22,263 nucleotides of DNA. Origin: an uncultured archaeon. GTDB lineage: Archaea > Asgardarchaeota > Lokiarchaeia > Sigyniarchaeales > SOKP01. Made by a program: the position numbers and the translations under genes. The DNA lies in assembly GCA_964388035.1 (NCBI GenBank), contig CAYLZE010000085.1, positions 1 through 22,263 on the forward strand, given 5' to 3'. Numbering within the stretch: position 1 is the stretch's first letter; each line of letters begins with the position of its first letter. This document shows positions 8,344-22,084 of this stretch, piece after piece. The notes beneath the pieces are model-generated. The model was not told the origin of the DNA. It was given only the letters and a program-made list of their open reading frames with translations, and searched no databases.

Positions 8344-10026
8344 TTAAATAAAAACTATAGTTTTCTGGATGTATTCTAAATAATGATTAATTTCTTTTTT
8401 TTTAGTATCTTCTGACCAAGAATACTCTCGAGCCATAATATCACCTACTACTTTTGTTGCTTGCTCTTGCTCTCTATGATCAATGAAAATGGCCATTTCA
8501 GTGCGCCTACAAAATACATCAATTAAATGAAGGGTTAACTCATGTTTTAAAGTGTAGAAAATTTCCGCTTTTATAAAATAATAATTATCAAGTATTTTTT
8601 CAGCAAGGGGGGGATCTTGCTTAATGAGCTCTAAAATTTTCAAAGCACCTCTTCCATATTGTTGATAAAGATGATCAGAAATCTTTTGCTCTAAATTAAT
8701 CCCACTTTTCTCGAGATTATTAACCCAATCCTCTTTATCAAGGGAAATGATGAATCTTTGTTTAGAAAAATTGCTCTCTCTATGAATATCGGAAAAAATA
8801 TTCGCTTTTTCAATTTCAAGAAGAAGATCTTCAGCCATGGCTCTCCATTCGGTTAACTTTCCGCCTGCAATAGTAAGGAGTCCATCATCAGAAAAAAATA
8901 TGATATGTTTTCGCGATATATCACTTTCAGATTTTCCTTTTTGCATTACTAAGGGACGTACTCCCGCATAAGTAGATAAGATGTTTTCATAGCTCAATTC
9001 TGCTTTGGGAAAGTAATATTTTACCGAGTTAATCAAATAATCTGCATCTTCTTTATTACAATAAGGATTGTCCAAATCACCCGAATAATCAGTATCGGTC
9101 GTTCCTATTATGGTAAATTCACCTTCCCGGGGCAATACAAAAAATGATCTATCATCTGTTCTTGAGCGGATTATCGTGGCCATTCTGTTTTTCACATGTT
9201 TTGTACGAAATTGAACGTGTACTCCTTTTGTAGGTCGAATTAATGGTTTTGGAATATCATCAGGATAACTTTCTAGTAATTTATCAGTCCATATCCCTGT
9301 TGCGTTGACAACTAATGTTCCTTTTATACGTAATTCTCGATTCTTTTCTAAATCCTTACATACCACCCCCACGATTTTTCCATTTGCTTTAATGTATTCT
9401 TCAACCTGACAATAATTAACAGCATCCGTACCCCGTATTACTGCTTCTTTTAAGGTTTCTAAGGTTAATCTTGCGTCATCCACGTTGTTATCGTAATACA
9501 CGGCACCCCCTTTATTACCTTCTTGAATGTACTCGGGCTCCATCTGATGAATTTCTTCTGCAGAATACCATTTATACTTTTTGAAGTTTTTGAATTCTTG
9601 ATCAGTATCGCTTAGAAAATCGTATATTTTACAAGCGCCTATGATATCTCTTTTTTTATACTTGTCCCCTTCTAATTCGACAAACAAGAAGGGTATGGGA
9701 CGAATCAAATTAGGAATTGCATAGCGCATCCAATTTCTTTCTGTACTAGCTGTTTTAACCAAATCCATGTCTCCATGAGATAAATATCTAATACCACCAT
9801 GTGCTAATTTCGAACTTCGAGAAGAGGTACCTCCCGCAAAATCTTGTTTTTCCAAAAGGGCGACTTTAAGGTTTCTCATTGCGGCCTCCCGAGCAACACC
9901 CGCTCCCGTAATTCCCCCTCCAATTATGATTATATCATAATTCATAGTTTGGAGTCTCTCAAATATTTTTTCTCTTGAATGGCAATTCCAAGATAATGAA
10001 AATAATTTATCTACTAATTCGCTCAT
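8344..10026 (-). CDS. glpD: FAD-dependent glycerol-3-phosphate dehydrogenase/oxidase (GlpD family)
   Basis: IIIGGGITGAG FAD motif, DFAGGTSSRSSKLAHGGIRYL, DDARL, VVNATGIWTD, PTKGVH, IGTTDTDY, YAGVRPL, GGKLT and C-terminal DVFCRRT. Confidence 0.95.
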   Translation of the reverse strand: MSELVDKLFSLSWNCHSREKIFERLQTMNYDIIIIGGGITGAGVAREAAMRNLKVALLEKQDFAGGTSSRSSKLAHGGIRYLSHGDMDLVKTASTERNWMRYAIPNLIRPIPFLFVELEGDKYKKRDIIGACKIYDFLSDTDQEFKNFKKYKWYSAEEIHQMEPEYIQEGNKGGAVYYDNNVDDARLTLETLKEAVIRGTDAVNYCQVEEYIKANGKIVGVVCKDLEKNRELRIKGTLVVNATGIWTDKLLESYPDDIPKPLIRPTKGVHVQFRTKHVKNRMATIIRSRTDDRSFFVLPREGEFTIIGTTDTDYSGDLDNPYCNKEDADYLINSVKYYFPKAELSYENILSTYAGVRPLVMQKGKSESDISRKHIIFFSDDGLLTIAGGKLTEWRAMAEDLLLEIEKANIFSDIHRESNFSKQRFIISLDKEDWVNNLEKSGINLEQKISDHLYQQYGRGALKILELIKQDPPLAEKILDNYYFIKAEIFYTLKHELTLHLIDVFCRRTEMAIFIDHREQEQATKVVGDIMAREYSWSEDTKKKEINHYLEYIQKTIVFI

Positions 10027-10126: not shown

Positions 10127-10936
10127 TTACACTGCAGTTAAAAATTTCCGGGTAGATAATCTAATTCCAATATACGCAAAAAATAAGGAAGTCAGGAATG
10201 CAAAGGGGAGATTTGCAATTATGATATAGGCGAATAAGGGTTCTGCCGAATAAAAATATAGGGTAATGACAACAATTACCAAAATGATAGAGCTTCCATA
10301 AGCGGGTTTCTGGTTTCCAATTAGAAAACCTAAAATAAAATTCGGAAGTATAAAAATGATTAATACGTTAGAGATGGCTAAAAATACTAGTGATGGCATG
10401 AAAATGGTAAAAATTTCGGTTTGACTAAATAATAATTGATTTAATTGAAAATAATTATAAAGAAATTGAGTGGCAATAATACTAACTAATAATAAGAAAT
10501 ATGACATCGGAGCTACAATTAACCATGATAATCCCATTCTTTTTCCGAATGAGGGTTGGACTTTTCCTTTTAAATTATTCATTACTAATATATTCATGAG
10601 AGTAGTATCTATTCTCTCTTTTTCATAATACGGAGAATACTCATCTATAAAATCCAACAAAATGTTTCTTAATACTTGATTAAGAAGAATATTATTATCA
10701 TTTGCATTTGCCACCATTGCACCTAATAAACATTCACGGGACATGGGCAATATAATTAATTTTTTATTTTCACCTAAATCAAGATGTTTTATTACACGAT
10801 TCAAAGCTTCTCGGCTGAAGTGCGTGATGGATGATAAAAATCCAACTAATAAATTAGTATCAAAACTAGTGCTGGTTAAGTTCTTTTCGTATAATAAAAC
10901 GCCATTTTCATTTATTATATATACACTATCTATCAA
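10127..10936 (-). CDS. Longin-like domain fused to ~4 C-terminal TM helices
   Basis: N-terminal MIDSVYIINENGVLLYEK (beta-beta), helix LLVGFLSSITHFSRE, three strands and helix LNQVLRNILLDFIDEY match the longin-fold pattern. Residues ~134-260 are hydrophobic. TTG start. Confidence 0.75.
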   Translation of the reverse strand: MIDSVYIINENGVLLYEKNLTSTSFDTNLLVGFLSSITHFSREALNRVIKHLDLGENKKLIILPMSRECLLGAMVANANDNNILLNQVLRNILLDFIDEYSPYYEKERIDTTLMNILVMNNLKGKVQPSFGKRMGLSWLIVAPMSYFLLLVSIIATQFLYNYFQLNQLLFSQTEIFTIFMPSLVFLAISNVLIIFILPNFILGFLIGNQKPAYGSSIILVIVVITLYFYSAEPLFAYIIIANLPFAFLTSLFFAYIGIRLSTRKFLTAV

Positions 10937-10981
10937 TTTTTCTCTTCTCGGGACTTTTAGTTAGTATTTTAATAAACTATC

Positions 10982-12763
10982 TTATTTGCCAATTGATTTT
11001 AAATTTTGGTGAATATATTCTAAATAATCGTCAAGATCAGCATTAAGTCTTTTAAAACTGTATAAATTTTGTCCAAATATTTGTATGAGTAATATTAACA
11101 AATCATCGGGATTCATTTGGGTATAGATTTTATACCGTTCATTCTTTCGATCCTCTATTATCACTAAAGATTCAAAGGTTCTTAATTTATTAATTTCTTC
11201 GGGATTAGGATTATTTAACTCAATTAAAACTAATTCTCCAGATTGAGGTAATTTTGCTCTATATTCTTCAATTGACCTAGTTTCAGTTGCCTTTTCAGTT
11301 ATAATAAGAATTTCATCGCATTCTGAAACAATTTCTTCTGGTCCATACAAAATGAATATCATGTGGAAAGATTTTTTGATATTTTTAATAAATTCATTGA
11401 ATTTGGCATACTCCATTCTATTTAAAAAATCGGGGGGTATTCTAAAAATAATTAAAGTAGAATATTGCAATAATGCTCTTGCGACGGAAAAGATCATGTA
11501 TTCTAATGAAGTTAACTCCTTTACTTTTACGTCCTTTTTAAGGATTAACCCCGTTACTTTTAAAATAATAGAGAGATTATCTCTTTTTTCCTTCCAATTC
11601 CTCAATATCCTATATAATTGAATTCTTTTTTCAAATTCTTCATAAATTTCATCTTTTAATTGATATAGTCCCGCATGCTTTATTGCATCTGTCAAAGCAA
11701 CTCGACGCTCCTTAAAGGGATTTGCAACTTGAATTCCCTTTTTTATCGCTCTTGCTAAAGTTAAATTTTCGGTTTTTTCATCAACTCTTGCGGGTAAAAT
11801 GAAAATTCTTTTTTTTTCTTGTTCTGAAAGTAATTGTACATGTTTTCCAAAAACCTTAATTGTTCCATTAAAATCCTCTTGTGAACCCCCTAAAGCTCTC
11901 ATTAATTTTAATAATTCTAAATTAAAAATATGTTCACTAATTTGGGTTGAATCATAATATATTCCTAATGATTCTCCCCTATGAACTTTGAAATTTAAAT
12001 TTTTAATCTTATCTGAAAGCATTATATCTTCCATGATTAAATGTTGAGAATCTTTAAAAAAACCCGATATATTAAGGCGATCAAGAATAACCTTAATTAA
12101 ACTATTCACAATTTCAGTAACATGTAAGGGGTGATTTTCATCCCATTTTTTGATGTTTTCTGTTTTTAAAAATTCATTTAATTTGATAATTCTGGATAAT
12201 GTAAGTGAAAATGTGATTTTTGGCAATAGAGGATAATTTTCAAAATTTATTTTAAGTTTCAATAAAAAGTGGGGAAAATACACCCAAATTTCTCTATTAT
12301 AAGGATTATTTTCAACGCTATAATTTTCATAATCTTCATTTAATAACGTGACTTCTTGTTCTAATACAGATAAATGGAAGCGATATTCGCTATTTATAGT
12401 TTTACTTAATCGATTAATAATTTTTAAAGGACTAACTAATCCATCATCATCAAAGTCAGGATTAAGGATTATTTGATTAATGTCGATTTCCGTTTCAATG
12501 GGAGTATATATTTTTAAGAGAGGCATGCCCTTATCCAATACATCCCTATTTGTAAAAAAAAGAACCTCTACATAACTTTTCTTATAAATCAAATTTAAAA
12601 TGGTAGATATACCAAATGTTCCTTCTTTATAAATCATCCAATACTTTCGTGAGACACGAATAGCTTCTAAGATCTTTTTTTGAATTGTATTTAATTCAAT
12701 TTGACGTTTGCTAATTGCTTCACCGTTATCATTCCTTACTTCTTTTTCTTTACTCATCGACAT
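10982..12763 (-). CDS. RWD/UBC-like domain fused to a degenerate (inactive) ABC ATPase
   Basis: aa ~135-226: EQEVTLLNEDY...KINFENYPLLPKITF...WDENHPLHVTEIVNSL. The ABC scaffold is visible (NLNFKVHRGESLGI, GTIKVFG, SVARALL, CDEILII), but Walker A, signature, Walker B and H-loop are all replaced. Confidence 0.72.
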   Translation of the reverse strand: MSMSKEKEVRNDNGEAISKRQIELNTIQKKILEAIRVSRKYWMIYKEGTFGISTILNLIYKKSYVEVLFFTNRDVLDKGMPLLKIYTPIETEIDINQIILNPDFDDDGLVSPLKIINRLSKTINSEYRFHLSVLEQEVTLLNEDYENYSVENNPYNREIWVYFPHFLLKLKINFENYPLLPKITFSLTLSRIIKLNEFLKTENIKKWDENHPLHVTEIVNSLIKVILDRLNISGFFKDSQHLIMEDIMLSDKIKNLNFKVHRGESLGIYYDSTQISEHIFNLELLKLMRALGGSQEDFNGTIKVFGKHVQLLSEQEKKRIFILPARVDEKTENLTLARAIKKGIQVANPFKERRVALTDAIKHAGLYQLKDEIYEEFEKRIQLYRILRNWKEKRDNLSIILKVTGLILKKDVKVKELTSLEYMIFSVARALLQYSTLIIFRIPPDFLNRMEYAKFNEFIKNIKKSFHMIFILYGPEEIVSECDEILIITEKATETRSIEEYRAKLPQSGELVLIELNNPNPEEINKLRTFESLVIIEDRKNERYKIYTQMNPDDLLILLIQIFGQNLYSFKRLNADLDDYLEYIHQNLKSIGK

Positions 12764-12771
12764 TTAATATT

Positions 12772-15700
12772 CTATTCCTCAATTTCAATTGTTCTATATC
12801 TAAAATATTCTTCCATTCGCGATTCTGATTGTGTAATTTTTTTCAGAACACCCTCACTAAAAATAGGTTTTATTTTTTCCTCAACTTGATTTAGAGTCAG
12901 ATCAGTAAAGATGGAATAATCAGTTCCGGCTTTGTCTTCTAAAGCTTTAGCTATGCCCTCAATATTATTCAGTTTCTCTAAAGCATTTTGTTGAATTTGC
13001 TTAAATGTCAATTGAATAGTCCTGCCTTTTCCCGGAAGTTGATCAAGGAGATCTTTAGGATCACCATAATCTATCAGACCTCTATATCTTCCAAAAATAG
13101 CAACTTTATCGCAAAATCTAGACTCTTCGGGATAATGAGTTATTATAATCAATGTGGTATTAAATTGCTCATTAATACGTGTTAAAGAGTGCCATAAGTT
13201 TTCTCTCACAATCGGATCGAGGCCTGAGGTGGGCTCATCCATCCAAACAATGATAGGTTCGTGAATAAGGGAGACTGCTATTGAAACACGACGCTTTTGA
13301 CCTCCTGAAAGATTTTTTACGAGCTCATTCATTTTATCTTCAATTTCAAGGGTTCTTAAAATTCTCCTTGCTCTTCTTCTAATTTCTTTTTCAGGAATTC
13401 CATATTGATTCCCAAAATATAATAGATTTTGGAGCGTAGTAAAATTCTGATAAATTTTAGATATATCTTGAGGACAGTATCCATAAATAGGACGAATTTT
13501 TTTTGCATACTTTCTCACATCCATCCCATAAATTTGTGATATACCTGTTGTTTTTCTCATTCCTAGTAATCCCTTGACAAATGTACTCTTTCCCGCTCCG
13601 CTTTCTCCTAAAACACCAAGAATTTCCCCATGAGTTAAACGCAATGAAACAGAATCAACAATTAATTTTCCTCCGGCATATATACTTAAATTTTCACAAT
13701 TAATGGCGGGAAATCTTTTTAAATATTCAATATTTAACTTGTCCCTTATATTTAAGATGGATTTTAGCCTTTCTGTTATATCAAAGTATGATAAAAAACT
13801 TAGAAATCCAATTATCCAGATAATCACAATTTCTGCAGCTAAAACAGAAAGTAATAATTGGTTCCAAGGGGTGGGATCAAAAGAGTGATCATATTTAAAA
13901 TTATTAATAATGATAATTCCAAAGGGACAGTTTCTTAAATCCCCGCCAAAATTTGGAACATCCCCCAATCCTCCCGTCTTTTTGCTGATGCAATTTAAGA
14001 ACCAAGTTAATAGAGTAGCCATATTTTCAGGTTGATATCGATAATCATACAATGCCTTGGATGCAAAATATGTAATAATAAAGTAGGAGATGCTAATTCC
14101 CGTAAATGTTGAAAGATCAGGTATAAGATTAAAACCACCATCTTCTAATTGGGCTAATTTTAAGAATTCTATTGAGGAAATCTTGGATAGAGGTTCTTCT
14201 TGAATTAATATTAATAATTCCAATCCATAATAAGTGGAAGTCACATCACTCTGAAATCCTAAAAATAATGGAAAACCTCCATCGGCACTTTGGCAAGATT
14301 TAATCCAGTTAGATAGAGATGTCATATTTATTTTATTGACTGCATCCAATATACTCAAAGCTGAATAGGCCCAATAGGTTGTTTCTACAGTCGAAATGTT
14401 GGTATTAACCAAATCTAATATGATGTAATAATAAGATCCAAAAAATTGGGAAAGGTATTCTGTATCATTACCTGCCTTAAACCCGCCGTCCGGATTCTGT
14501 AATTGAATTAAATAAATTTGCGTGGCTGTTCTATTTGGAAGCTCTATTTTTTCATAATCAAAAAAAATTTCATATAATTCCATGGCACAATAAGTAGAAA
14601 AGGTACTGGAATTCATTCCGGGGTGAGAACCAAAACCACCATCTCGAAGATTATAACAATCTTCCACGAACTTCCAAGTATTGTTAATATTAATTAAATT
14701 AGGTAATCCCGTGGAATTTCCTTCATATACGGCTAATGTACCCAAATAATTAGACTCAATAGTTATATCTCCAAATAAACCATTCGTAGCTTGATGGTCA
14801 TATAACCAAGAATAATAATTTAGTCTCACCTGATTGATTCGTTCTTTATAAACATCATCAAGCTGTGAGTTTTGTTCAAATAAGGTGATTGTATTCATAG
14901 CGGCCCATCCAGCTTTGAATGTTGAAGGATATTTATTTCCCTGTCTCACCCCAAATCCCCCATCCGTATTGTTACAATTCAAGACATAATCAAGTGTTTG
15001 AAATCTTTGCAATGGTGTAGATCCTATTTTATAGAGAGAAGATACACTGTAATAAGTTGATTTGACATCTGAATCTCCCCCAATTTCCATCGAATAACCT
15101 CCATCTAGCCGAGAATAACGAAGAAGATTGAAAAACGCAATTATTAATCCTTCATCAATTAAACTATAAGTTTGATTTAATTCTAAAAATGCCTTGATTC
15201 CATAATATGTACTTTCTGAAGTAGGAGATATCGTTGTATTGGTATAAGAATATCCTCCGAGATAAAAAGTTGAATTTATGTACGTTGAAAGATTCTGTTT
15301 AGAGATTATAGCTGGAAGCGAAAATTGTTCCGCCAATTTTATTCCACAATAGGTTGAAATGATATCAGAATCATTTAAAGAGGGATTCAATTTAAATCCA
15401 TACCCATGAGATTCTTGACTATTTTTTAGATATTGAATAATTTTATCAATTTTTCCTTCATCTATTTCGGGATCCAAGAATGATTTACCCATTTCATCTA
15501 TAGTAGCTACAACTTCATAGGTTGAAAAAAGATTACCTAATCCGTAAACATCAGAAAACGAACCATCATCATTTTGTTTTTCGAATAAATAATGAAAGAA
15601 AAAATATTTTTCATCTTCTTTTAATAAGGTATTTGAGCGGGGATCTATCAATTTGGATAGAATAAATTGATTACTTGAAAAGTTAATAGAGTTAATTGCG

Positions 15701-15957
15701 CTGTAAGTCGAATCAATATCCACTTCAATGAATAATCCCGATGAGGGATTTTTATGTGTTAGAGAAAAATATAACATTTCATCTTTAAGGTCATTAACTT
15801 GTTCTGTGGTAAAATATTGCTTATAAGGAGTATTAATTATCAATAATAGAAATAAAGGGGCGCTTAATACCACGGAGATAATTATGATTGTTCTTATTAT
15901 TCGTTTCGTTTTATAATTTATATTATCCCACCTCCTCTTTCCATTTGGTATTCCCAT
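12772..15957 (-). CDS. Membrane-anchored prenyltransferase/squalene-cyclase-repeat ectodomain fused to an ABC ATPase
   Basis: N-terminal TM, 12 Q-x-x-DGGF...STY-type repeats, second TM (~13857-13786), then GESGAGKS, GYCPQ, LSGGQ, VWMDEPTSGLD, ITH. The true start may be ATA at 15921. Confidence 0.88.
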   Translation of the reverse strand: MGIPNGKRRWDNINYKTKRIIRTIIIISVVLSAPLFLLLIINTPYKQYFTTEQVNDLKDEMLYFSLTHKNPSSGLFIEVDIDSTYSAINSINFSSNQFILSKLIDPRSNTLLKEDEKYFFFHYLFEKQNDDGSFSDVYGLGNLFSTYEVVATIDEMGKSFLDPEIDEGKIDKIIQYLKNSQESHGYGFKLNPSLNDSDIISTYCGIKLAEQFSLPAIISKQNLSTYINSTFYLGGYSYTNTTISPTSESTYYGIKAFLELNQTYSLIDEGLIIAFFNLLRYSRLDGGYSMEIGGDSDVKSTYYSVSSLYKIGSTPLQRFQTLDYVLNCNNTDGGFGVRQGNKYPSTFKAGWAAMNTITLFEQNSQLDDVYKERINQVRLNYYSWLYDHQATNGLFGDITIESNYLGTLAVYEGNSTGLPNLININNTWKFVEDCYNLRDGGFGSHPGMNSSTFSTYCAMELYEIFFDYEKIELPNRTATQIYLIQLQNPDGGFKAGNDTEYLSQFFGSYYYIILDLVNTNISTVETTYWAYSALSILDAVNKINMTSLSNWIKSCQSADGGFPLFLGFQSDVTSTYYGLELLILIQEEPLSKISSIEFLKLAQLEDGGFNLIPDLSTFTGISISYFIITYFASKALYDYRYQPENMATLLTWFLNCISKKTGGLGDVPNFGGDLRNCPFGIIIINNFKYDHSFDPTPWNQLLLSVLAAEIVIIWIIGFLSFLSYFDITERLKSILNIRDKLNIEYLKRFPAINCENLSIYAGGKLIVDSVSLRLTHGEILGVLGESGAGKSTFVKGLLGMRKTTGISQIYGMDVRKYAKKIRPIYGYCPQDISKIYQNFTTLQNLLYFGNQYGIPEKEIRRRARRILRTLEIEDKMNELVKNLSGGQKRRVSIAVSLIHEPIIVWMDEPTSGLDPIVRENLWHSLTRINEQFNTTLIIITHYPEESRFCDKVAIFGRYRGLIDYGDPKDLLDQLPGKGRTIQLTFKQIQQNALEKLNNIEGIAKALEDKAGTDYSIFTDLTLNQVEEKIKPIFSEGVLKKITQSESRMEEYFRYRTIEIEE

Positions 15958-16931
15958 TCTTTTTTTTCCTTTTCTTCCTCCTCTTGAATCCGTATTTGAA
16001 AGTATCTTCGGAAAGTTGCTCCATCCTTATTAAGTGACTTAATTTTAACATCGTTTTTTATAAGATAATCAACCAATTTTGGAAGCTCATCATCAAAATT
16101 ATTTAAAAAAACTTCCACTACTTCATTCCCTACTCTAATTATTTTATCCACGGGGTAATTCTTAAATATATTGATCTTAACTTGATTTAATTCATCGATG
16201 GTAAACCTAGCTAATTTACCTCCACTTGGAAGTGTAGATATTAATACTTGTGGATCCTCAAACTCCAATACTCTCCCTTCTCTTAGTATTGCTGCTTTAT
16301 CGCAAATTAAGGAGCATTCCATGTCATGAGATATAATGAACATGGTCGTTCCTAAATTCTGATTAAGTTTCTTTAGGTAGCTTAAAATATCATACCTCTT
16401 ACTTGCATCCACTCCCGTGGTGGGTTCATCTAGAAATAAAATTTCAGGTTCATGTATGAGACCTATTGCTATGGAGACTCTCTTCTTTTCTCCGCCACTC
16501 ATGTTATTTAAGGGTTTTTTCCACGTATCTTCAGGAATATCTAATATTTGAAAAAGATCGCTTGCTATTTTTTTTGATTTTTCTGTCTTCATGCCATAAG
16601 TTGATGCAAAAGTTTCAATATTAGCAAGCGGTTTTAAATCATAATAAAGATTGAGTTCTTCCAGCTGAGGAACATATCCTATGGAAGATAATATCTCTGG
16701 ATGATTGCGTCTTTTTGCCGGAGATAACCCCATTACTTGAATATTTCCACTCCAATGTTTCTTATTAAGCTGGCATGTAATTGCCCGAATGATTGTAGTT
16801 TTACCTGCTCCCGATATCCCGAAATATCCTATAATTTCACCTTTTTTTACCGAAAATGACACATCATGGATGATGTGCTTCTTTCCAAATTTCACATTTA
16901 AATTTTCCACTTCAATTACTATATCATTCAC
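15918..16931 (-). CDS. ABC transporter ATP-binding protein (ABC-2/DrrA-CcmA-like) with C-terminal regulatory domain
   Basis: GISGAGKT, GYVPQ, MSGGE, FLDEPTTGVD, ISH. GTG start preceded by gagga. Confidence 0.93.
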   Translation of the reverse strand: MNDIVIEVENLNVKFGKKHIIHDVSFSVKKGEIIGYFGISGAGKTTIIRAITCQLNKKHWSGNIQVMGLSPAKRRNHPEILSSIGYVPQLEELNLYYDLKPLANIETFASTYGMKTEKSKKIASDLFQILDIPEDTWKKPLNNMSGGEKKRVSIAIGLIHEPEILFLDEPTTGVDASKRYDILSYLKKLNQNLGTTMFIISHDMECSLICDKAAILREGRVLEFEDPQVLISTLPSGGKLARFTIDELNQVKINIFKNYPVDKIIRVGNEVVEVFLNNFDDELPKLVDYLIKNDVKIKSLNKDGATFRRYFQIRIQEEEEKEKKEWEYQMERGGGII

Positions 16932-17035
16932 ATGAATCCTCTAAAGCAGGTAATTTTATTCTCGCCTAGTTTATTTGCGATATAATTTAATTTTTAATTA
17001 AATTCCTCCATTAATTATTCTTTTTCCTAATTACA

Positions 17036-18175
17036 TTAGACCTCATAATCCTTTAGATAAAATATTATGAAACTAAGCGCGATGAATAATGCACTTATTC
17101 CTAATAAGCAATAAAAATCAAATCCAATCACAGATTTCCCTTTTGTCACGATCCCCATGATGAGGGGCTTTCCATGAGATAGAGGTAGCATGTATGCTAC
17201 AGCTTGCAGATATCTGGGCATTGCATCAATCGGAATAAAGATTCCGCTTAAGATAACGATTAAAATATAAAAAGCGAACATTAGCTGATTTGCTTCTGTC
17301 TTAGTGTTGCTGGTACAACTGATAAAGATTCCTATGGATAAACCTGAAAATCCGATCATAAATAATGCAATGAATAAATCGAGTGATGACCCTACTATGT
17401 AAAGTCCACCCAAAATACTCGAAATCATTAGGATTATAACTTGCAAAAACAAAATAGAAGAATAGGTAATAAATTTTGAACAAAGAATTTCATATTTATT
17501 GAGGGGAGTAAGTAAAAGTCGAGCTATGGGATGTTCCCTAACAACGACTAATATCGTAAGGACCAGACTTATTCCAAAAATTATCATGGGAAGCAATAAG
17601 GTAATAGCATTATTAAATTGAAAATTATAATTTGGAGGAATTGCAAATTCTTGATATCCAGCAATTTTAAATTGCGGTTTGAGATTATTATCTTTCACAA
17701 ATATATCTATGGAGTCTTGAACAGCATTGAGATAATCTTGAATTTTATCTATATTTGATGCATCGGGAACGCATTGAATTACAGCAGGATAACCCCAAGA
17801 TATCATCTCTGAAAAATCTAAGGGGATAACAATAATAACACTAACATTTCCTGCAAGTAGTTCATTTTGGGCTTCTTCCATGGCATAAATATCTTTAGAA
17901 GCATTATAAAATTTAACTAATTCCAATTTTTGGGATTTATTTACCGCATTCAAATAAGGAATCGTATAATTATCTATCTTATATTCTGTATAATCATTAG
18001 GATTGAGAAAGGAATTAGAATCATAAGAAATTACAATGGTCTTAACTGGAATGGGATTTTCAGCGGATTGCATCGAAATATACGCAAAAAGCGTGACGAT
18101 GAGAGGTGGGAGCGCTAATGCAATGAATAAGTTATAAGGATCTGTCCGTAATAGTCTAAATTCCTTTTTTATCAT
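17036..18175 (-). CDS. ABC-2 type permease with extracellular domain (YbhR/YbhS-like)
   Basis: KEFRLLRTD, TM1, ~150 aa ectodomain (VIIVIPLDFS, DASN), then 5 TM with LSGIFIPIDAMP...YMLPLSHG. The reading frame stays open upstream to 18265, so the real start is probably earlier (ATT 18259). Confidence 0.92.
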   Translation of the reverse strand: MIKKEFRLLRTDPYNLFIALALPPLIVTLFAYISMQSAENPIPVKTIVISYDSNSFLNPNDYTEYKIDNYTIPYLNAVNKSQKLELVKFYNASKDIYAMEEAQNELLAGNVSVIIVIPLDFSEMISWGYPAVIQCVPDASNIDKIQDYLNAVQDSIDIFVKDNNLKPQFKIAGYQEFAIPPNYNFQFNNAITLLLPMIIFGISLVLTILVVVREHPIARLLLTPLNKYEILCSKFITYSSILFLQVIILMISSILGGLYIVGSSLDLFIALFMIGFSGLSIGIFISCTSNTKTEANQLMFAFYILIVILSGIFIPIDAMPRYLQAVAYMLPLSHGKPLIMGIVTKGKSVIGFDFYCLLGISALFIALSFIIFYLKDYEV

Positions 18176-18265
18176 TTTTGTTATTCTAAAAAGGCTAAGT
18201 CTGAGATCTCGAAAAAATCTTTTTTTTTTCTTTCCCCAGAATTTTCTTGAAGAATTAATATGACA

Positions 18266-19420
18266 TCACACTTCCACCTTCTTTAATTTGAATATGAGAT
18301 AAGCAAGAAAGAGAAACACCAAACTAATTAAATTTAAAGAAATAAAATGCTGGAGAGTGATCGATAACCCTTTTAAAGTGATTTCGACTAATAACGGAAT
18401 GGCGTGACCCAAGGGTAAACTATTAATTAATATTTGTAAGGCGGGAGATAAAGAAGAAGTATCAACAAAAGTTCCTGAAAGAAGGAGCATTGTTATAAAA
18501 AACATGATATAAAGTTGGTTTGCGGTTTGCTCTGATGGACTGATTGCAGAGATGAACAACCCTATGCACACGCCACTGAACCCGATGGCAACCAATACGA
18601 TATAAAGTTCAAAGAGTGAACCTAGAGAATACAACCCAAATAGCGCAATAGTTACAAATATTTCCGCAGATTGCAAAAGCATGATTAAACTATTCGCGAC
18701 CAATTTACTAATTATGATTTCATTTTTTGCCGTGGGTGTTAGCAACATCCTGGGGAGGGGTCCTTCAGATACGATTGACAGCGAGGTGAGATTCATGGTA
18801 GTACCAATAATAATGAGAGGTAACATGATAGAAACTGCATAATTTAATATTTGGGGTTCCCAAAAAGGCACGTCATATTCCAGATAGGGGTTCATGACGA
18901 CCATATTTTTTGTCATTCCTACTTTTGCTCGAAACAGCGCTATGGGTTCTTGTAATGATACTTCAATGGCTGCAACAGCATTCAGCTCCGAACCATCCAC
19001 ATAATAAATTATAACGGGATCTACTCCCTTAATAACGGACTCTGAAAAATTTGTCGGTAAAATAATGAATACATCAATTGTCTCTTGCCGTAATAATTCA
19101 ATATATCGATTAAAAGTATATTCATATCCCGTAATATTCCGGGCTATGTATGATTCATAAAGACCAAAAGAGGTGGTGTTATCGCGCATGATGGAGATAA
19201 AATCATTTTCATATGCATGGGAATCTTTTCTAAAGCCTCTCCAACAGTGCATTTCATCTTTACTAATAATAGCTGCATTGAAAAATTTTGTTGGACCTCC
19301 TCCAGAAGTCAGTCCAAAAATAATTATCAAGATTAAGGGAATAATGAATATCATGACTAAAGTTCTTCTATCTGACCTAATCCGACCAAATTCCTTAAAG
19401 ATTAATCCACGTATATTCAA
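18266..19420 (-). CDS. ABC-2 type permease with extracellular domain (paralogue of 17036..18175)
   Basis: KEFGRIRSDRRT, TM1, ectodomain (FIILPTNFS, VDGS), LLSGTFV...SLPLGHA. TTG start preceded by aggag. Confidence 0.92.
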   Translation of the reverse strand: MNIRGLIFKEFGRIRSDRRTLVMIFIIPLILIIIFGLTSGGGPTKFFNAAIISKDEMHCWRGFRKDSHAYENDFISIMRDNTTSFGLYESYIARNITGYEYTFNRYIELLRQETIDVFIILPTNFSESVIKGVDPVIIYYVDGSELNAVAAIEVSLQEPIALFRAKVGMTKNMVVMNPYLEYDVPFWEPQILNYAVSIMLPLIIIGTTMNLTSLSIVSEGPLPRMLLTPTAKNEIIISKLVANSLIMLLQSAEIFVTIALFGLYSLGSLFELYIVLVAIGFSGVCIGLFISAISPSEQTANQLYIMFFITMLLLSGTFVDTSSLSPALQILINSLPLGHAIPLLVEITLKGLSITLQHFISLNLISLVFLFLAYLIFKLKKVEV

Positions 19421-19530: not shown

Positions 19531-20973
19531 CTAGGAAAGATAGGTGTTTTGATACCAATCTTTTAGATTTTTGAAACGAGAAGACTTGAATGTAGTGAGG
19601 AGGTGATTTTTCGCATCCTTTTTTATTTTTTCGAATAATGCTTCACAAATTTTTGGATTATCTTGACTAATGTCTTTGCTCCATGTCGGGTCTCTAGTGA
19701 GATCATACAATTTTTGAAAAGATCGATCGTTTGCTGTTATTAGGGCATAATGATCATCCTTATAAAGTGTCCAAAGACTCATGCCACATGTGATGTAATC
19801 TCTGCCCTCGAGTTCATGATCCTGTTCATCAACAAATCGAGAAAGGTCTAAACCATCCAAATTATTTGGTCTTTCTTTGCCAAGAAACCCAAGAATTGTA
19901 GGCAAGATATCGTGAACATACACGTGACTTTTGGTTATTTTTTTAGGTCCCTTTATACCTCCAGGGGGTTTGATCATTAGAGGAATATCCACTAATTCGG
20001 GATAAAGATGGGTAGGGATTTTTCCTATCGCACTATGTTCTCCTAAACTGTGTCCATGATCACTCAATAGAATAATTAATGATTCTTCATAAATTTCCAA
20101 TTCTTTTAACTTCTCAATAAAATGACCAAACCAAGCATCGCACAAAGATACTTCTCCAGAATAGCATGCCCGCATGCATTTTAATTCTTCCCTTGACATG
20201 TATGTTAAAGATTCTCCATAAATGGGTAGAATAATCCTATTACCTCGATATGCTTTATCTAAATAGAGCTGAAGATATTGTTGCGGAGGATCCCAGGGTT
20301 CATGGGGATCAAACTCATCTATTAATAAGAAAATGTTGCTATAATTCTTTAAAATATCAAGGGTTTCGATAGCTTTTTGAAATGTTTTAGCGGGAAAATA
20401 ATTTTTCTCCTCTTTCCGATATTGCACGTTAGCAAAATAGCGACTTAATAATAATTTTTGCAATTGGACTTGAGCTTTATTTTCTTTCGTTTTATTTACT
20501 AAAAATTTACGTATATAGCTATTGATCTCACGCTTATCTCCTTTTAATCTTGCATGGTATTTATCAAACTCTTGTCCCCGAATAGCATGCCATTCATCAA
20601 ACCCTAAATGAAAATTCATGTTGGGTTTAAATTGATGATAAGTGCTTGTAATAAATGAGGTAATATATCCCAATCGAGTAAGGTATTCTGACAAATGTTT
20701 TTGATTGGAAGGAATGGGTGTCCAACCAGGGGACTCTACCATATCATCCGTTCTTAAGAAAGAAACATCTTGATTAAAGGGGAATGTTCTAATTCCCGTA
20801 TGAACGGCGCGGCGCACGGGTATGGTAGGCAAAGATTCAGGATACGCTTTTTCGAATACAATAGAATCATTAGCAAAAGCGTCGAAATGGGGAGTGTGTA
20901 TTTGATCATTCCCATAAATTTTGCCTACATGATCCTTTCTTAATGTATCAAATATTATCAAAAAGATTTTCAT
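19531..20973 (-). CDS. Sulfatase-like alkaline-phosphatase-superfamily hydrolase (Thr at nucleophile position)
   Basis: IIFDTLRKDH, TPHFD, PTIPVRRAVHTG (position of CxPxRxxxxTG), DPHEPW, LSDHG, PLMIK, LYDLTRDP. No signal peptide. Confidence 0.9.
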   Translation of the reverse strand: MKIFLIIFDTLRKDHVGKIYGNDQIHTPHFDAFANDSIVFEKAYPESLPTIPVRRAVHTGIRTFPFNQDVSFLRTDDMVESPGWTPIPSNQKHLSEYLTRLGYITSFITSTYHQFKPNMNFHLGFDEWHAIRGQEFDKYHARLKGDKREINSYIRKFLVNKTKENKAQVQLQKLLLSRYFANVQYRKEEKNYFPAKTFQKAIETLDILKNYSNIFLLIDEFDPHEPWDPPQQYLQLYLDKAYRGNRIILPIYGESLTYMSREELKCMRACYSGEVSLCDAWFGHFIEKLKELEIYEESLIILLSDHGHSLGEHSAIGKIPTHLYPELVDIPLMIKPPGGIKGPKKITKSHVYVHDILPTILGFLGKERPNNLDGLDLSRFVDEQDHELEGRDYITCGMSLWTLYKDDHYALITANDRSFQKLYDLTRDPTWSKDISQDNPKICEALFEKIKKDAKNHLLTTFKSSRFKNLKDWYQNTYLS

Positions 20974-21100: not shown

Positions 21101-22084
21101 TTAATCTTGTATTAATTTCTTCAAAATTAGAAGCATGGAATAAATATCATGGTAATTATGCTCAATACATTTTTTAATTAATCCGATGTATCGATTCGGA
21201 TTTTCCTTGTACTTTCTGTAGCATAATCCTACCATGCTACTTGGTAGTTCATTTTGTCTTTTAAAATTCAATAATTGGGTTTCAATACTCGTCAAGCTAT
21301 AATTTTCATACTTGCCCTTGAATTTTCTTCGGCAATTATGATAGAGATCCAAGTGATAATATTGCGTATTACTTTTTTCATAAGGATCTTCGCTCTCGAG
21401 AATCATTGGATTTTCATCAAAAAAATAAAGTAATCGATTTGCTATGTAAGGAATATCAAAGCTTTTTCCATTATAAGTAATGAATCCTTTAAATCTGGGA
21501 AGAATTTCTTTTCGGAAATATTCCAAAATAGCGATTTCTTCTTCCAATTCTCTACTAAACAGTTGAGAAATTACAAATTTTTCATTATCATAATACCCTA
21601 ATCCTAAAATAATGATTGAGCTATCATAAAGATCTAATGTTTCTATATCAATAAATAACAGTTCTTTTTTATTAAAACAGAAGATTAAATCTAAATCTTG
21701 AATATAGCGATTTTTACTCAATGTGACATGATCTTTTTTTTTAATTAACTCCAAAATTTCATTTGCAGAATTTCGATATCGTAAATTAAATCTCAAGTCT
21801 AAAAGAGTTTTAACACCCCTGCGAAATAAATCTCGTTCAATAGCTTCTCCTATATAATATACAGTTTTTAAGTTCTGGAGTAGTTTTTTCTTAGTAAAAT
21901 GTAAACACAAATCATTTTGTGAGACATCCAAGACATTCTTGACTTCCATGAATTGTCCCATTTCATTCCTGAGGATATTATAATTTGGAAAGAGATCCTC
22001 TATAGCTTTACCCCGATATTTCGTAATATAATCCGTGATGTTTACGCTGATTTCTTCAATATTTAGATGAAAATCCATTGCCAA
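21101..22084 (-). CDS. YprB/MrfB-like RNase H-fold DEDD 3'-5' exonuclease with helix-hairpin-helix segment
   Basis: FIDIET (ExoI), TYNGKSFDIPYI (ExoII), HLDLYH, YSLTSIE, EHNYHDI (ExoIII); HhH-like LKTVYYIGEAIERDLFRRGVKTLLDL. Confidence 0.88.
   Translation of the reverse strand: MAMDFHLNIEEISVNITDYITKYRGKAIEDLFPNYNILRNEMGQFMEVKNVLDVSQNDLCLHFTKKKLLQNLKTVYYIGEAIERDLFRRGVKTLLDLRFNLRYRNSANEILELIKKKDHVTLSKNRYIQDLDLIFCFNKKELLFIDIETLDLYDSSIIILGLGYYDNEKFVISQLFSRELEEEIAILEYFRKEILPRFKGFITYNGKSFDIPYIANRLLYFFDENPMILESEDPYEKSNTQYYHLDLYHNCRRKFKGKYENYSLTSIETQLLNFKRQNELPSSMVGLCYRKYKENPNRYIGLIKKCIEHNYHDIYSMLLILKKLIQD

Follow-up and report, generated by a model that had tools for sequence, protein, structure and literature searches.

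What does an ATP-binding cassette (ABC) transporter operon do that gathers longin, RWD/UEV-like and prenyltransferase-like domains around one pump? The question is raised by six genes, here called A to F, on a 22,263-nucleotide (nt) stretch of DNA from an uncultured archaeon of the Lokiarchaeia (GenBank assembly GCA_964388035.1, contig CAYLZE010000085.1, positions 1 to 22,263, forward strand; hereafter the window). The roles of "eukaryotic signature" folds in Asgard archaea are largely unknown, and a pump whose ATPase activity is measurable makes them accessible by reconstitution. The operon is real and conserved, and it is apparently an undescribed variant of the ABC-2 exporters. We tentatively read it, as a whole, as a type V (ABC-2; YbhFSR/ABCH-like) exporter with a dead outer barrel and with E and F as accessory regulators.

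A conserved six-gene operon

A preliminary description, made from the DNA letters alone, had reported six co-directional genes in an Asgard archaeon. Both statements hold. All six open reading frames are present on the minus strand with the motifs that it quoted, and the named homologues belong to Promethearchaeota (Lokiarchaeia) or to other Asgard lineages. C shares 40 nt with D, and gaps of 8 nt and 45 nt separate D from E and E from F. The genes and their main parts are as follows.

Gene A, 18266..19420, minus strand: ABC-2 permease of the YbhS/ABCH type, with a first transmembrane (TM) helix, TM1, an ectodomain of ~150 amino acids (aa) and five further TM helices.
Gene B, 17036..18175, minus strand: second permease, a paralogue of A.
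Gene C, 15918..16931, minus strand: soluble ABC ATPase with intact Walker A, signature and Walker B and a C-terminal regulatory domain.
Gene D, 12772..15957, minus strand: TM1, a duplicated prenyltransferase-repeat alpha/alpha barrel, TM2 and an intact ABC ATPase with regulatory domain.
Ectodomain of D (residues ~45-695), 13873..15825, minus strand: duplicated barrel of about 10 repeats, predicted to be extracellular.
Gene E, 10982..12763, minus strand: tandem RWD/UEV-like domains, then a degenerate nucleotide-binding domain (NBD) with regulatory domain.
Tandem RWD/UEV-like domains of E (residues 19-232), 12068..12709, minus strand: assigned from secondary structure and profile links.
Gene F, 10127..10936, minus strand: N-terminal longin domain (residues 1-125), then four TM helices.

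Conserved synteny, which had been proposed as a test of the arrangement, was found in relatives for all six genes. The order A-B-C-D-E-F is kept in 23 loci of the same family (20 fetched, together with L071, L072 and L087) and in one locus of another family of the class (L055), with further genes occasionally inserted at the B-C or D-E junction. The adjacency of E and F survives the insertions between D and E. Two further families of the class have A to E without an adjacent F; L060 and L061 hold A to E in order with an unrelated gene after E, and in L056, L058 and L059 the order is C-D-A-B with E divergently oriented. D and E occur in the same 33 of 48 family genomes (E by strong match). In a search of 400 genomes of the phylum, this class and one outlier, G154, were the only sources of D orthologues. 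The distribution is patchy. Of 134 family genomes 75 have the operon, and searches of three single-contig genomes did not find it.

The outlier carries a five-gene operon, A-B-C-D-E' (L073:6136-13791), whose E' is without the RWD pair, and full-length F was not found in its genome. In the NBD trees, C, D and E of G154 nest inside Lokiarchaeia clades, which rules out the RWD-less operon as the ancestral state; transfer or misbinning of a reduced copy is the probable explanation. The nesting would therefore imply that the RWD pair and F were lost jointly, once, which hints only weakly at a shared role.

Two variants concern the junction of D and E. At L046, L048 and L072, two genes on the opposite strand stand between them. 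One encodes a membrane protein of 245 aa; the product of the other, ~155 aa long and without a Pfam match, is by eye a probable roadblock/longin protein. L080:3934-8451 encodes a 1505-aa in-frame fusion of D and E that is without the regulatory domain of D, as a result of either a real deletion or an assembly artefact.

The ABC-2 core and the origin of its ATPases

The permeases place the system. Pfam models PF12698 (ABC2_membrane_3; E 7.7e-23 for A, 6.3e-29 for B), PF01061 and PF12679 score above cut-off for both proteins, which makes them transmembrane domains (TMDs) of the ABC2_membrane families, and hydropathy gives each TM1, a ~150-residue ectodomain and five more helices. Their sole significant matches among solved structures are to insect ABCH-9C (E 1.5e-26 over the full length of A; E 3e-20 for B), in keeping with the ABCH-like character first proposed for them. 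ABCH-9C pumps ceramide and lipophilic xenobiotics/insecticides (PMC12578276). Neither A nor B carries an NBD, so the NBD-TMD half-transporter architecture of ABCH is absent. The single polypeptide of ABCA, with TMD, NBD and regulatory domain (R) twice over, is absent as well, the genes being separate in all loci examined, and at E<0.1 the permease profiles gave no match to ABCA TMDs.

In the orthologue alignments checked, Walker A, signature, Walker B and H-switch are invariant in C and D. Walker A is present in 0 of 99 homologues of E, which is predicted to be incapable of hydrolysing ATP. The preliminary description had taken the C-terminal module common to C, D and E as a sign of co-adapted paralogues. 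This module is the general DrrA/NosF-type regulatory domain and therefore gives no evidence of special kinship among the three; in the fold search, NBDs of the NosF type that carry such domains are among the high-ranking matches.

An NBD phylogeny was built from C, D, E, the ATPases T1 and T2 of a sister operon, the other ABC ATPases of this genome and E. coli YbhF, RbbA and YadG. In these quick trees, supported by the Shimodaira-Hasegawa-like approximate likelihood ratio test (SH-aLRT) only, a well-supported split (SH-aLRT 95 and 99) separates C, D, E, T1 and T2 from a YbhF/YadG/DrrA-like group. C pairs with T1 and D with T2 (SH-aLRT 98-99 in each case). A clade of C, D and E alone is rejected by the approximately unbiased (AU) test (p 0.00025; 22 long or redundant rows omitted), so the three NBDs are not a private triplication, and the idea of co-adapted paralogues falls. 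A grouping of E with D and T2 is compatible with the AU test (p 0.23), and the long branch of E makes its position tentative.

The sister operon is spread over metagenome-assembled genomes of Jord/Freyr-, Hel-, Loki-, Hermod- and Thorarchaeia. Its loci (L116-L148, L064-L070) hold the T1 ATPase, one or two permeases, the T2 ATPase and a large anchored subtilase-GIFT protein; T2 carries a duplicated N-terminal domain with a weak TrmB-like match. The large protein is encoded in 24 of 33 sister loci; it spans 1,200-1,800 aa, and helices at its two ends enclose a subtilase domain followed by a GIFT/DUF4350-like domain, the latter scoring below cut-off. Among 21 long copies checked, 0 carried the catalytic Ser motif of subtilases. 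D repeats this topology of helix, dead-enzyme ectodomain and helix, here fused to a T2-type NBD. According to the trees, C and D would descend from the two ATPases of this pan-Asgard operon. Because D shares both the topology and the T2-type NBD, the C/D heterodimer with a dead surface enzyme fold would be the older design, and E and F would be additions to it.

The prenyltransferase-like barrel of D, a predicted ectodomain

The barrel of D matches PF00432 (E 1e-36; 127 bits against a cut-off of 26.5), and its nearest solved relative is the beta subunit of RabGGTase (GGTase-II; E 2.4e-15). RabGGTase beta binds geranylgeranyl groups. The barrel is internally duplicated, its halves matching each other at E 1.4e-10, and its sequence is conserved at 33-70% identity over 650 residues. 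D has exactly two hydrophobic helices. One, at about residues 19-46, is preceded by basic residues; the other, at about residues 698-729, is followed by them. Because the NBD of D must be cytoplasmic and the two helices flank the barrel, the 650 residues between them very probably lie outside the cell.

The prenyltransferase-beta fold noticed at first thus stands, and its description as an enzyme of the eukaryotic trafficking type does not. The Asp-x-Cys...His zinc triad is not conserved, the string DxC[YF] appearing in only 4 of 29 orthologues and outside the consensus. The DxDD protonation motif of squalene-hopene cyclase is present in 3 of 29, and Pfam cyclase models score below cut-off. 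A prenyltransferase alpha subunit (PPTA, PF01239) was not found in this 96.7% complete genome, though the short model can miss distant forms. The barrel is best read, on its motifs and predicted topology, as a dead-enzyme ectodomain. An enzyme that prenylates the longin F, by analogy with GGTase-III and Ykt6, is excluded by the topology and the missing zinc motif; on the outer face the barrel would be unable to reach such a substrate.

Other Asgard lineages fuse a similar double barrel, as an ectodomain, ahead of a 7TM/ATP-grasp enzyme, so the barrel appears to be a reusable surface module in Asgard archaea. At L082-L085, in other Asgard lineages, prenyltransferase-repeat proteins are encoded by gene pairs, one of the two proteins being fused to 7TM_transglut and an ATP-grasp domain. 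At L085 a transglutaminase-like gene follows the pair.

The RWD/UEV pair of E and the longin of F

The longin, RWD/UBC-like and prenyltransferase-like folds named in the preliminary description are all three supported. In an AlphaFold2 model of E (predicted local distance difference test score, pLDDT, 86), the secondary structure follows the alpha-beta-beta-beta-(YPxxxP)-beta-alpha topology with its conserved Trp, twice in tandem. The second unit carries the YPxxxP motif, with Pro178 invariant and Tyr177, Pro181 and Trp207 at 90% or more. The catalytic cysteine of E2 enzymes is absent before the conserved Trp, and the only recurrent Cys column in residues 19-232 is residue 223, in the last helix. 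Profile links lead from the N-terminus of E to Asgard multi-repeat UQ_con/RWD proteins, and there are weak matches to BRE (E 0.12; Pfam BRE E 9e-4 for family members) and E2 (E 0.46). Whole-chain fold searches of E (PDB, viral, Atlas and broader) were filled by the NBD, apart from one weak viral E2 row (E 1.3e-3), and Atlas feature searches returned no named match. A match of the N-terminus of E to Rpb8 was dismissed for its short alignment and incompatible fold.

The second repeat of E is shared with an Asgard family of multi-repeat RWD/UBC-like proteins (L074, L076, L077, L079; P0196-P0199), some of which carry RING or JAB. The first RWD unit holds a DxDxDG EF-hand-like loop (residues 103-108; window 12440-12457) in 86 of 99 homologues, with weak calmodulin matches. 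This loop may bind Ca2+ or may merely be the Trp-Asp loop of the family.

The N-terminus of F has the longin beta-beta-alpha-beta-beta-beta-alpha-alpha fold, and about a dozen longin-like matches occur in this genome. Its TM part was considered as a truncated permease for E on one Pfam hint and rejected, profile-profile comparison with A and B giving a probability of 0.1-0.2%. A complex prediction for E and F scored 0.01 (mark 0.32) and was counted neither for nor against their association. Two other families carry unlinked longin-4TM homologues of F (L091-L097), two or three per genome, some of them near small-GTPase-like genes.

Flanking genes, the start of B and an intron in relatives

The operon is flanked in the window by glpD (8344-10026), a sulfatase (19531-20973) and an RNase-H-like nuclease (21101-22084). 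Among relatives, recurrent neighbours are an acyl-CoA synthetase, an FAD oxidase, glpD, the RNase-H-like nuclease and two unknown families, and they differ by lineage; linkage of glpD and the nuclease to the operon is repeated in only 3-4 relatives. A sigma-70/terminator scan of the locus, a type ill-suited to archaea, stayed at chance level. The frame of B is open, without a standard start, over window 18176-18265 up to the stop codon of A, and homologues of B are ~30 aa longer. B may possibly start further upstream, at a non-standard start or an eroded overlap start.

In 12 of 161 genomes of the class (six genera; L101-L112), gene C holds an insert of 31-34 nt inside a Thr codon after Walker B. 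The site corresponds to codon T172, at about window 16416-16417, and the window's own copy is without the insert. A bulge-helix-bulge (BHB) is present in 12 of 12 inserts, with the 3-base-pair (bp) outer helix in all 12 and two 3-nt bulges; the 4-bp central helix is complete in 10, with compensatory changes. Excision at the canonical positions restores the Walker B/D-loop peptide and the frame in 12 of 12, and a reversed control pattern matched none. The insert is a candidate tRNA-type mRNA intron. The split C genes are ruled out as pseudogenes by the candidate BHB introns that they carry.

Discussion

Motifs and family rules suggest how the parts may act. Permeases A and B would very probably form the channel, powered by a heterodimer of the intact ATPases C and D. 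Just as probably, D would be anchored by its two TM helices, which flank a double alpha/alpha barrel that is catalytically dead and exposed on the outer face. The barrel may serve as an acceptor or sensor of hydrophobic cargo, probably an isoprenoid lipid or lipid-linked product bound for the outer leaflet or envelope, a role like that of ABCA ectodomains. We consider this assignment possible, short of probable. Isoprenoid-type cargo is suggested because ABCH-like permeases, a prenyl-binding fold and isoprenoid membranes come together here. E would, with slightly better than even probability, dock on the layer of NBDs and regulatory domains as a brake or scaffold, presenting two enzymatically inert RWD/UEV surfaces. 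F may be a membrane-anchored longin adaptor that accompanies the RWD-bearing E, although its binding to the complex falls a little short of an even chance. The operon would be a derivative of the pan-Asgard family that pairs the same two-ATPase core with a dead-enzyme surface protein.

Several observations weigh against this exporter. The cargo assignment is putative, ABC-2 permeases of such shape also export drugs or peptides (YbhFSR, SagGHI), and the binding pocket of the barrel is putative too. A lipid or isoprenoid cargo, as first proposed, is plausible though putative. The flanking genes (glpD, acyl-CoA synthetase, FAD oxidase) are variable and point to no substrate. F is unlinked to the operon in two other families, and full-length F homologues stand elsewhere in the genome. 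The operon was not found in several 99-100% complete family genomes, as for a dispensable system. Sequon enrichment over composition, about 1.8-fold in barrel and NBD alike, was dropped as evidence and adds nothing to the topology.

Other machines could be built from the same parts. In a mechanotransducer or envelope-assembly machine like NosDFY or GldAFG, ATP cycles of C and D would move an ectodomain that holds or hands over a surface component, and E and F would relay its state to the cytoplasm. The GldG/IFT52-type GIFT domain on the dead subtilase of the sister operon agrees with this, as do the reuse of the double barrel before the 7TM/ATP-grasp enzyme and the high rank of NosF-type NBDs. 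However, A and B retain the full ABCH-like six-helix exporter fold, and no two-component or other output partner recurs beside the operon; we consider such a machine rather unlikely. A drug or peptide efflux pump of the DrrAB, SagGHI or PmtCD type, with incidental accessory domains, is less likely again. In NCBIfam the operon scores best against drrA, RbbA and SagH, in each case below cut-off, and its patchy presence suits an accessory function, but such pumps need no conserved 650-residue ectodomain, dead NBD or longin, and the NBDs lie outside the YbhF/YadG/DrrA-like group.

The most far-reaching alternative is a proto-trafficking machine under the control of ubiquitin (via the RWD/UEV pair) and of a small GTPase (via the longin). 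The folds are real, Asgard proteins with RING and JAB fusions share the RWD-like repeat of E, genes of a Rab-like GTPase family adjoin 6 of 33 sister loci, and the probable roadblock/longin gene (by eye) stands between D and E in three relatives. Yet the RWD pair is without the E2 cysteine, and no E1, E3, ubiquitin or GTPase gene was found to recur beside this operon. In addition, the barrel would sit on the wrong side of the membrane for cytoplasmic prenylation, the alpha subunit was not found in the genome, and RWD and longin are general interaction modules, the latter with its dozen or so matches in this genome. The coupling to ubiquitin and small GTPases in the preliminary description was drawn from fold alone and is not borne out; we regard this machine as quite improbable. 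Equally doubtful is its fullest form, one complex of all six proteins with three NBD-fold subunits, in which an ABCH/ABCA-like isoprenoid-lipid exporter is gated by a ubiquitin-reading pseudo-ATPase and a GTPase-engaging longin. If this were true, membrane-lipid transport under ubiquitin and GTPase control would have a prokaryotic precedent.

The exporter with a dead outer barrel has a core of an ordinary transporter class, and genetics are not at hand because none of the closed genomes searched yielded the operon. Its link to the sister operon suggests a design general to Asgard archaea, in which a catalytically dead surface enzyme fold accompanies an ABC-2 core. No description of this operon was found in the searchable literature, beyond whose reach most subscription papers lie; the available part of PMC7997004 covers Asgard ABC2 systems in general terms. 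No paper was found that describes an ABC-2 system in which a third NBD is dead and another is tethered to an outer domain.

Comparison with known systems sets out what is shared and what is added. The large accessory folds have familiar counterparts. The ectodomain of D has the fold of the RabGGTase/FTase beta subunit, and differs in being without a conserved zinc motif, in its predicted extracellular position and in that no alpha subunit was found. The N-terminus of E has the fold of BRE/BRCC45-type tandem UEV/RWD proteins without the E2 cysteine, and that of F the fold of the VAMP7, AP-sigma and TRAPP longins, with four TM helices instead of a SNARE motif. GldA/F/G and NosDFY likewise join an ABC-2 core to a large accessory domain on the outer face, and a GldG-type GIFT domain is present in the sister operon; here, instead, a prenyltransferase-like barrel takes the place of that domain and is fused to an NBD. 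Eukaryotic ABCA1/3/4/7 are alike in the ectodomain after TM1, the regulatory domains after the NBDs and high NBD similarity (ABCA/ABCH kinship being judged by similarity ranks, with trees free of eukaryotic sequences), but are one polypeptide. Insect ABCH-9C (PDB 8yzp, 9ju6; PMC12578276), a lipid/lipophile exporter, is the nearest solved sequence for both permeases, which does not make it their nearest relative. ABCH is a fused NBD-TMD homodimer, whereas the Asgard operon has separate, heterodimeric TMDs and NBDs with accessory subunits. The prokaryotic ABC-2/type V exporters (E. coli YbhFSR and RbbA-YhhJ; DrrAB; T. maritima TM_1403, PDB 4yer) share two TM1-ectodomain-5TM permeases and DEPT-type NBDs with a C-terminal regulatory domain. 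Unlike them, the Asgard operon has three NBD-fold subunits, one of them dead, and one NBD held by two TM helices around a 650-aa ectodomain. It also adds a longin-4TM gene, is without a membrane-fusion protein, and its NBDs form part of a separate, Asgard-dominated clade.

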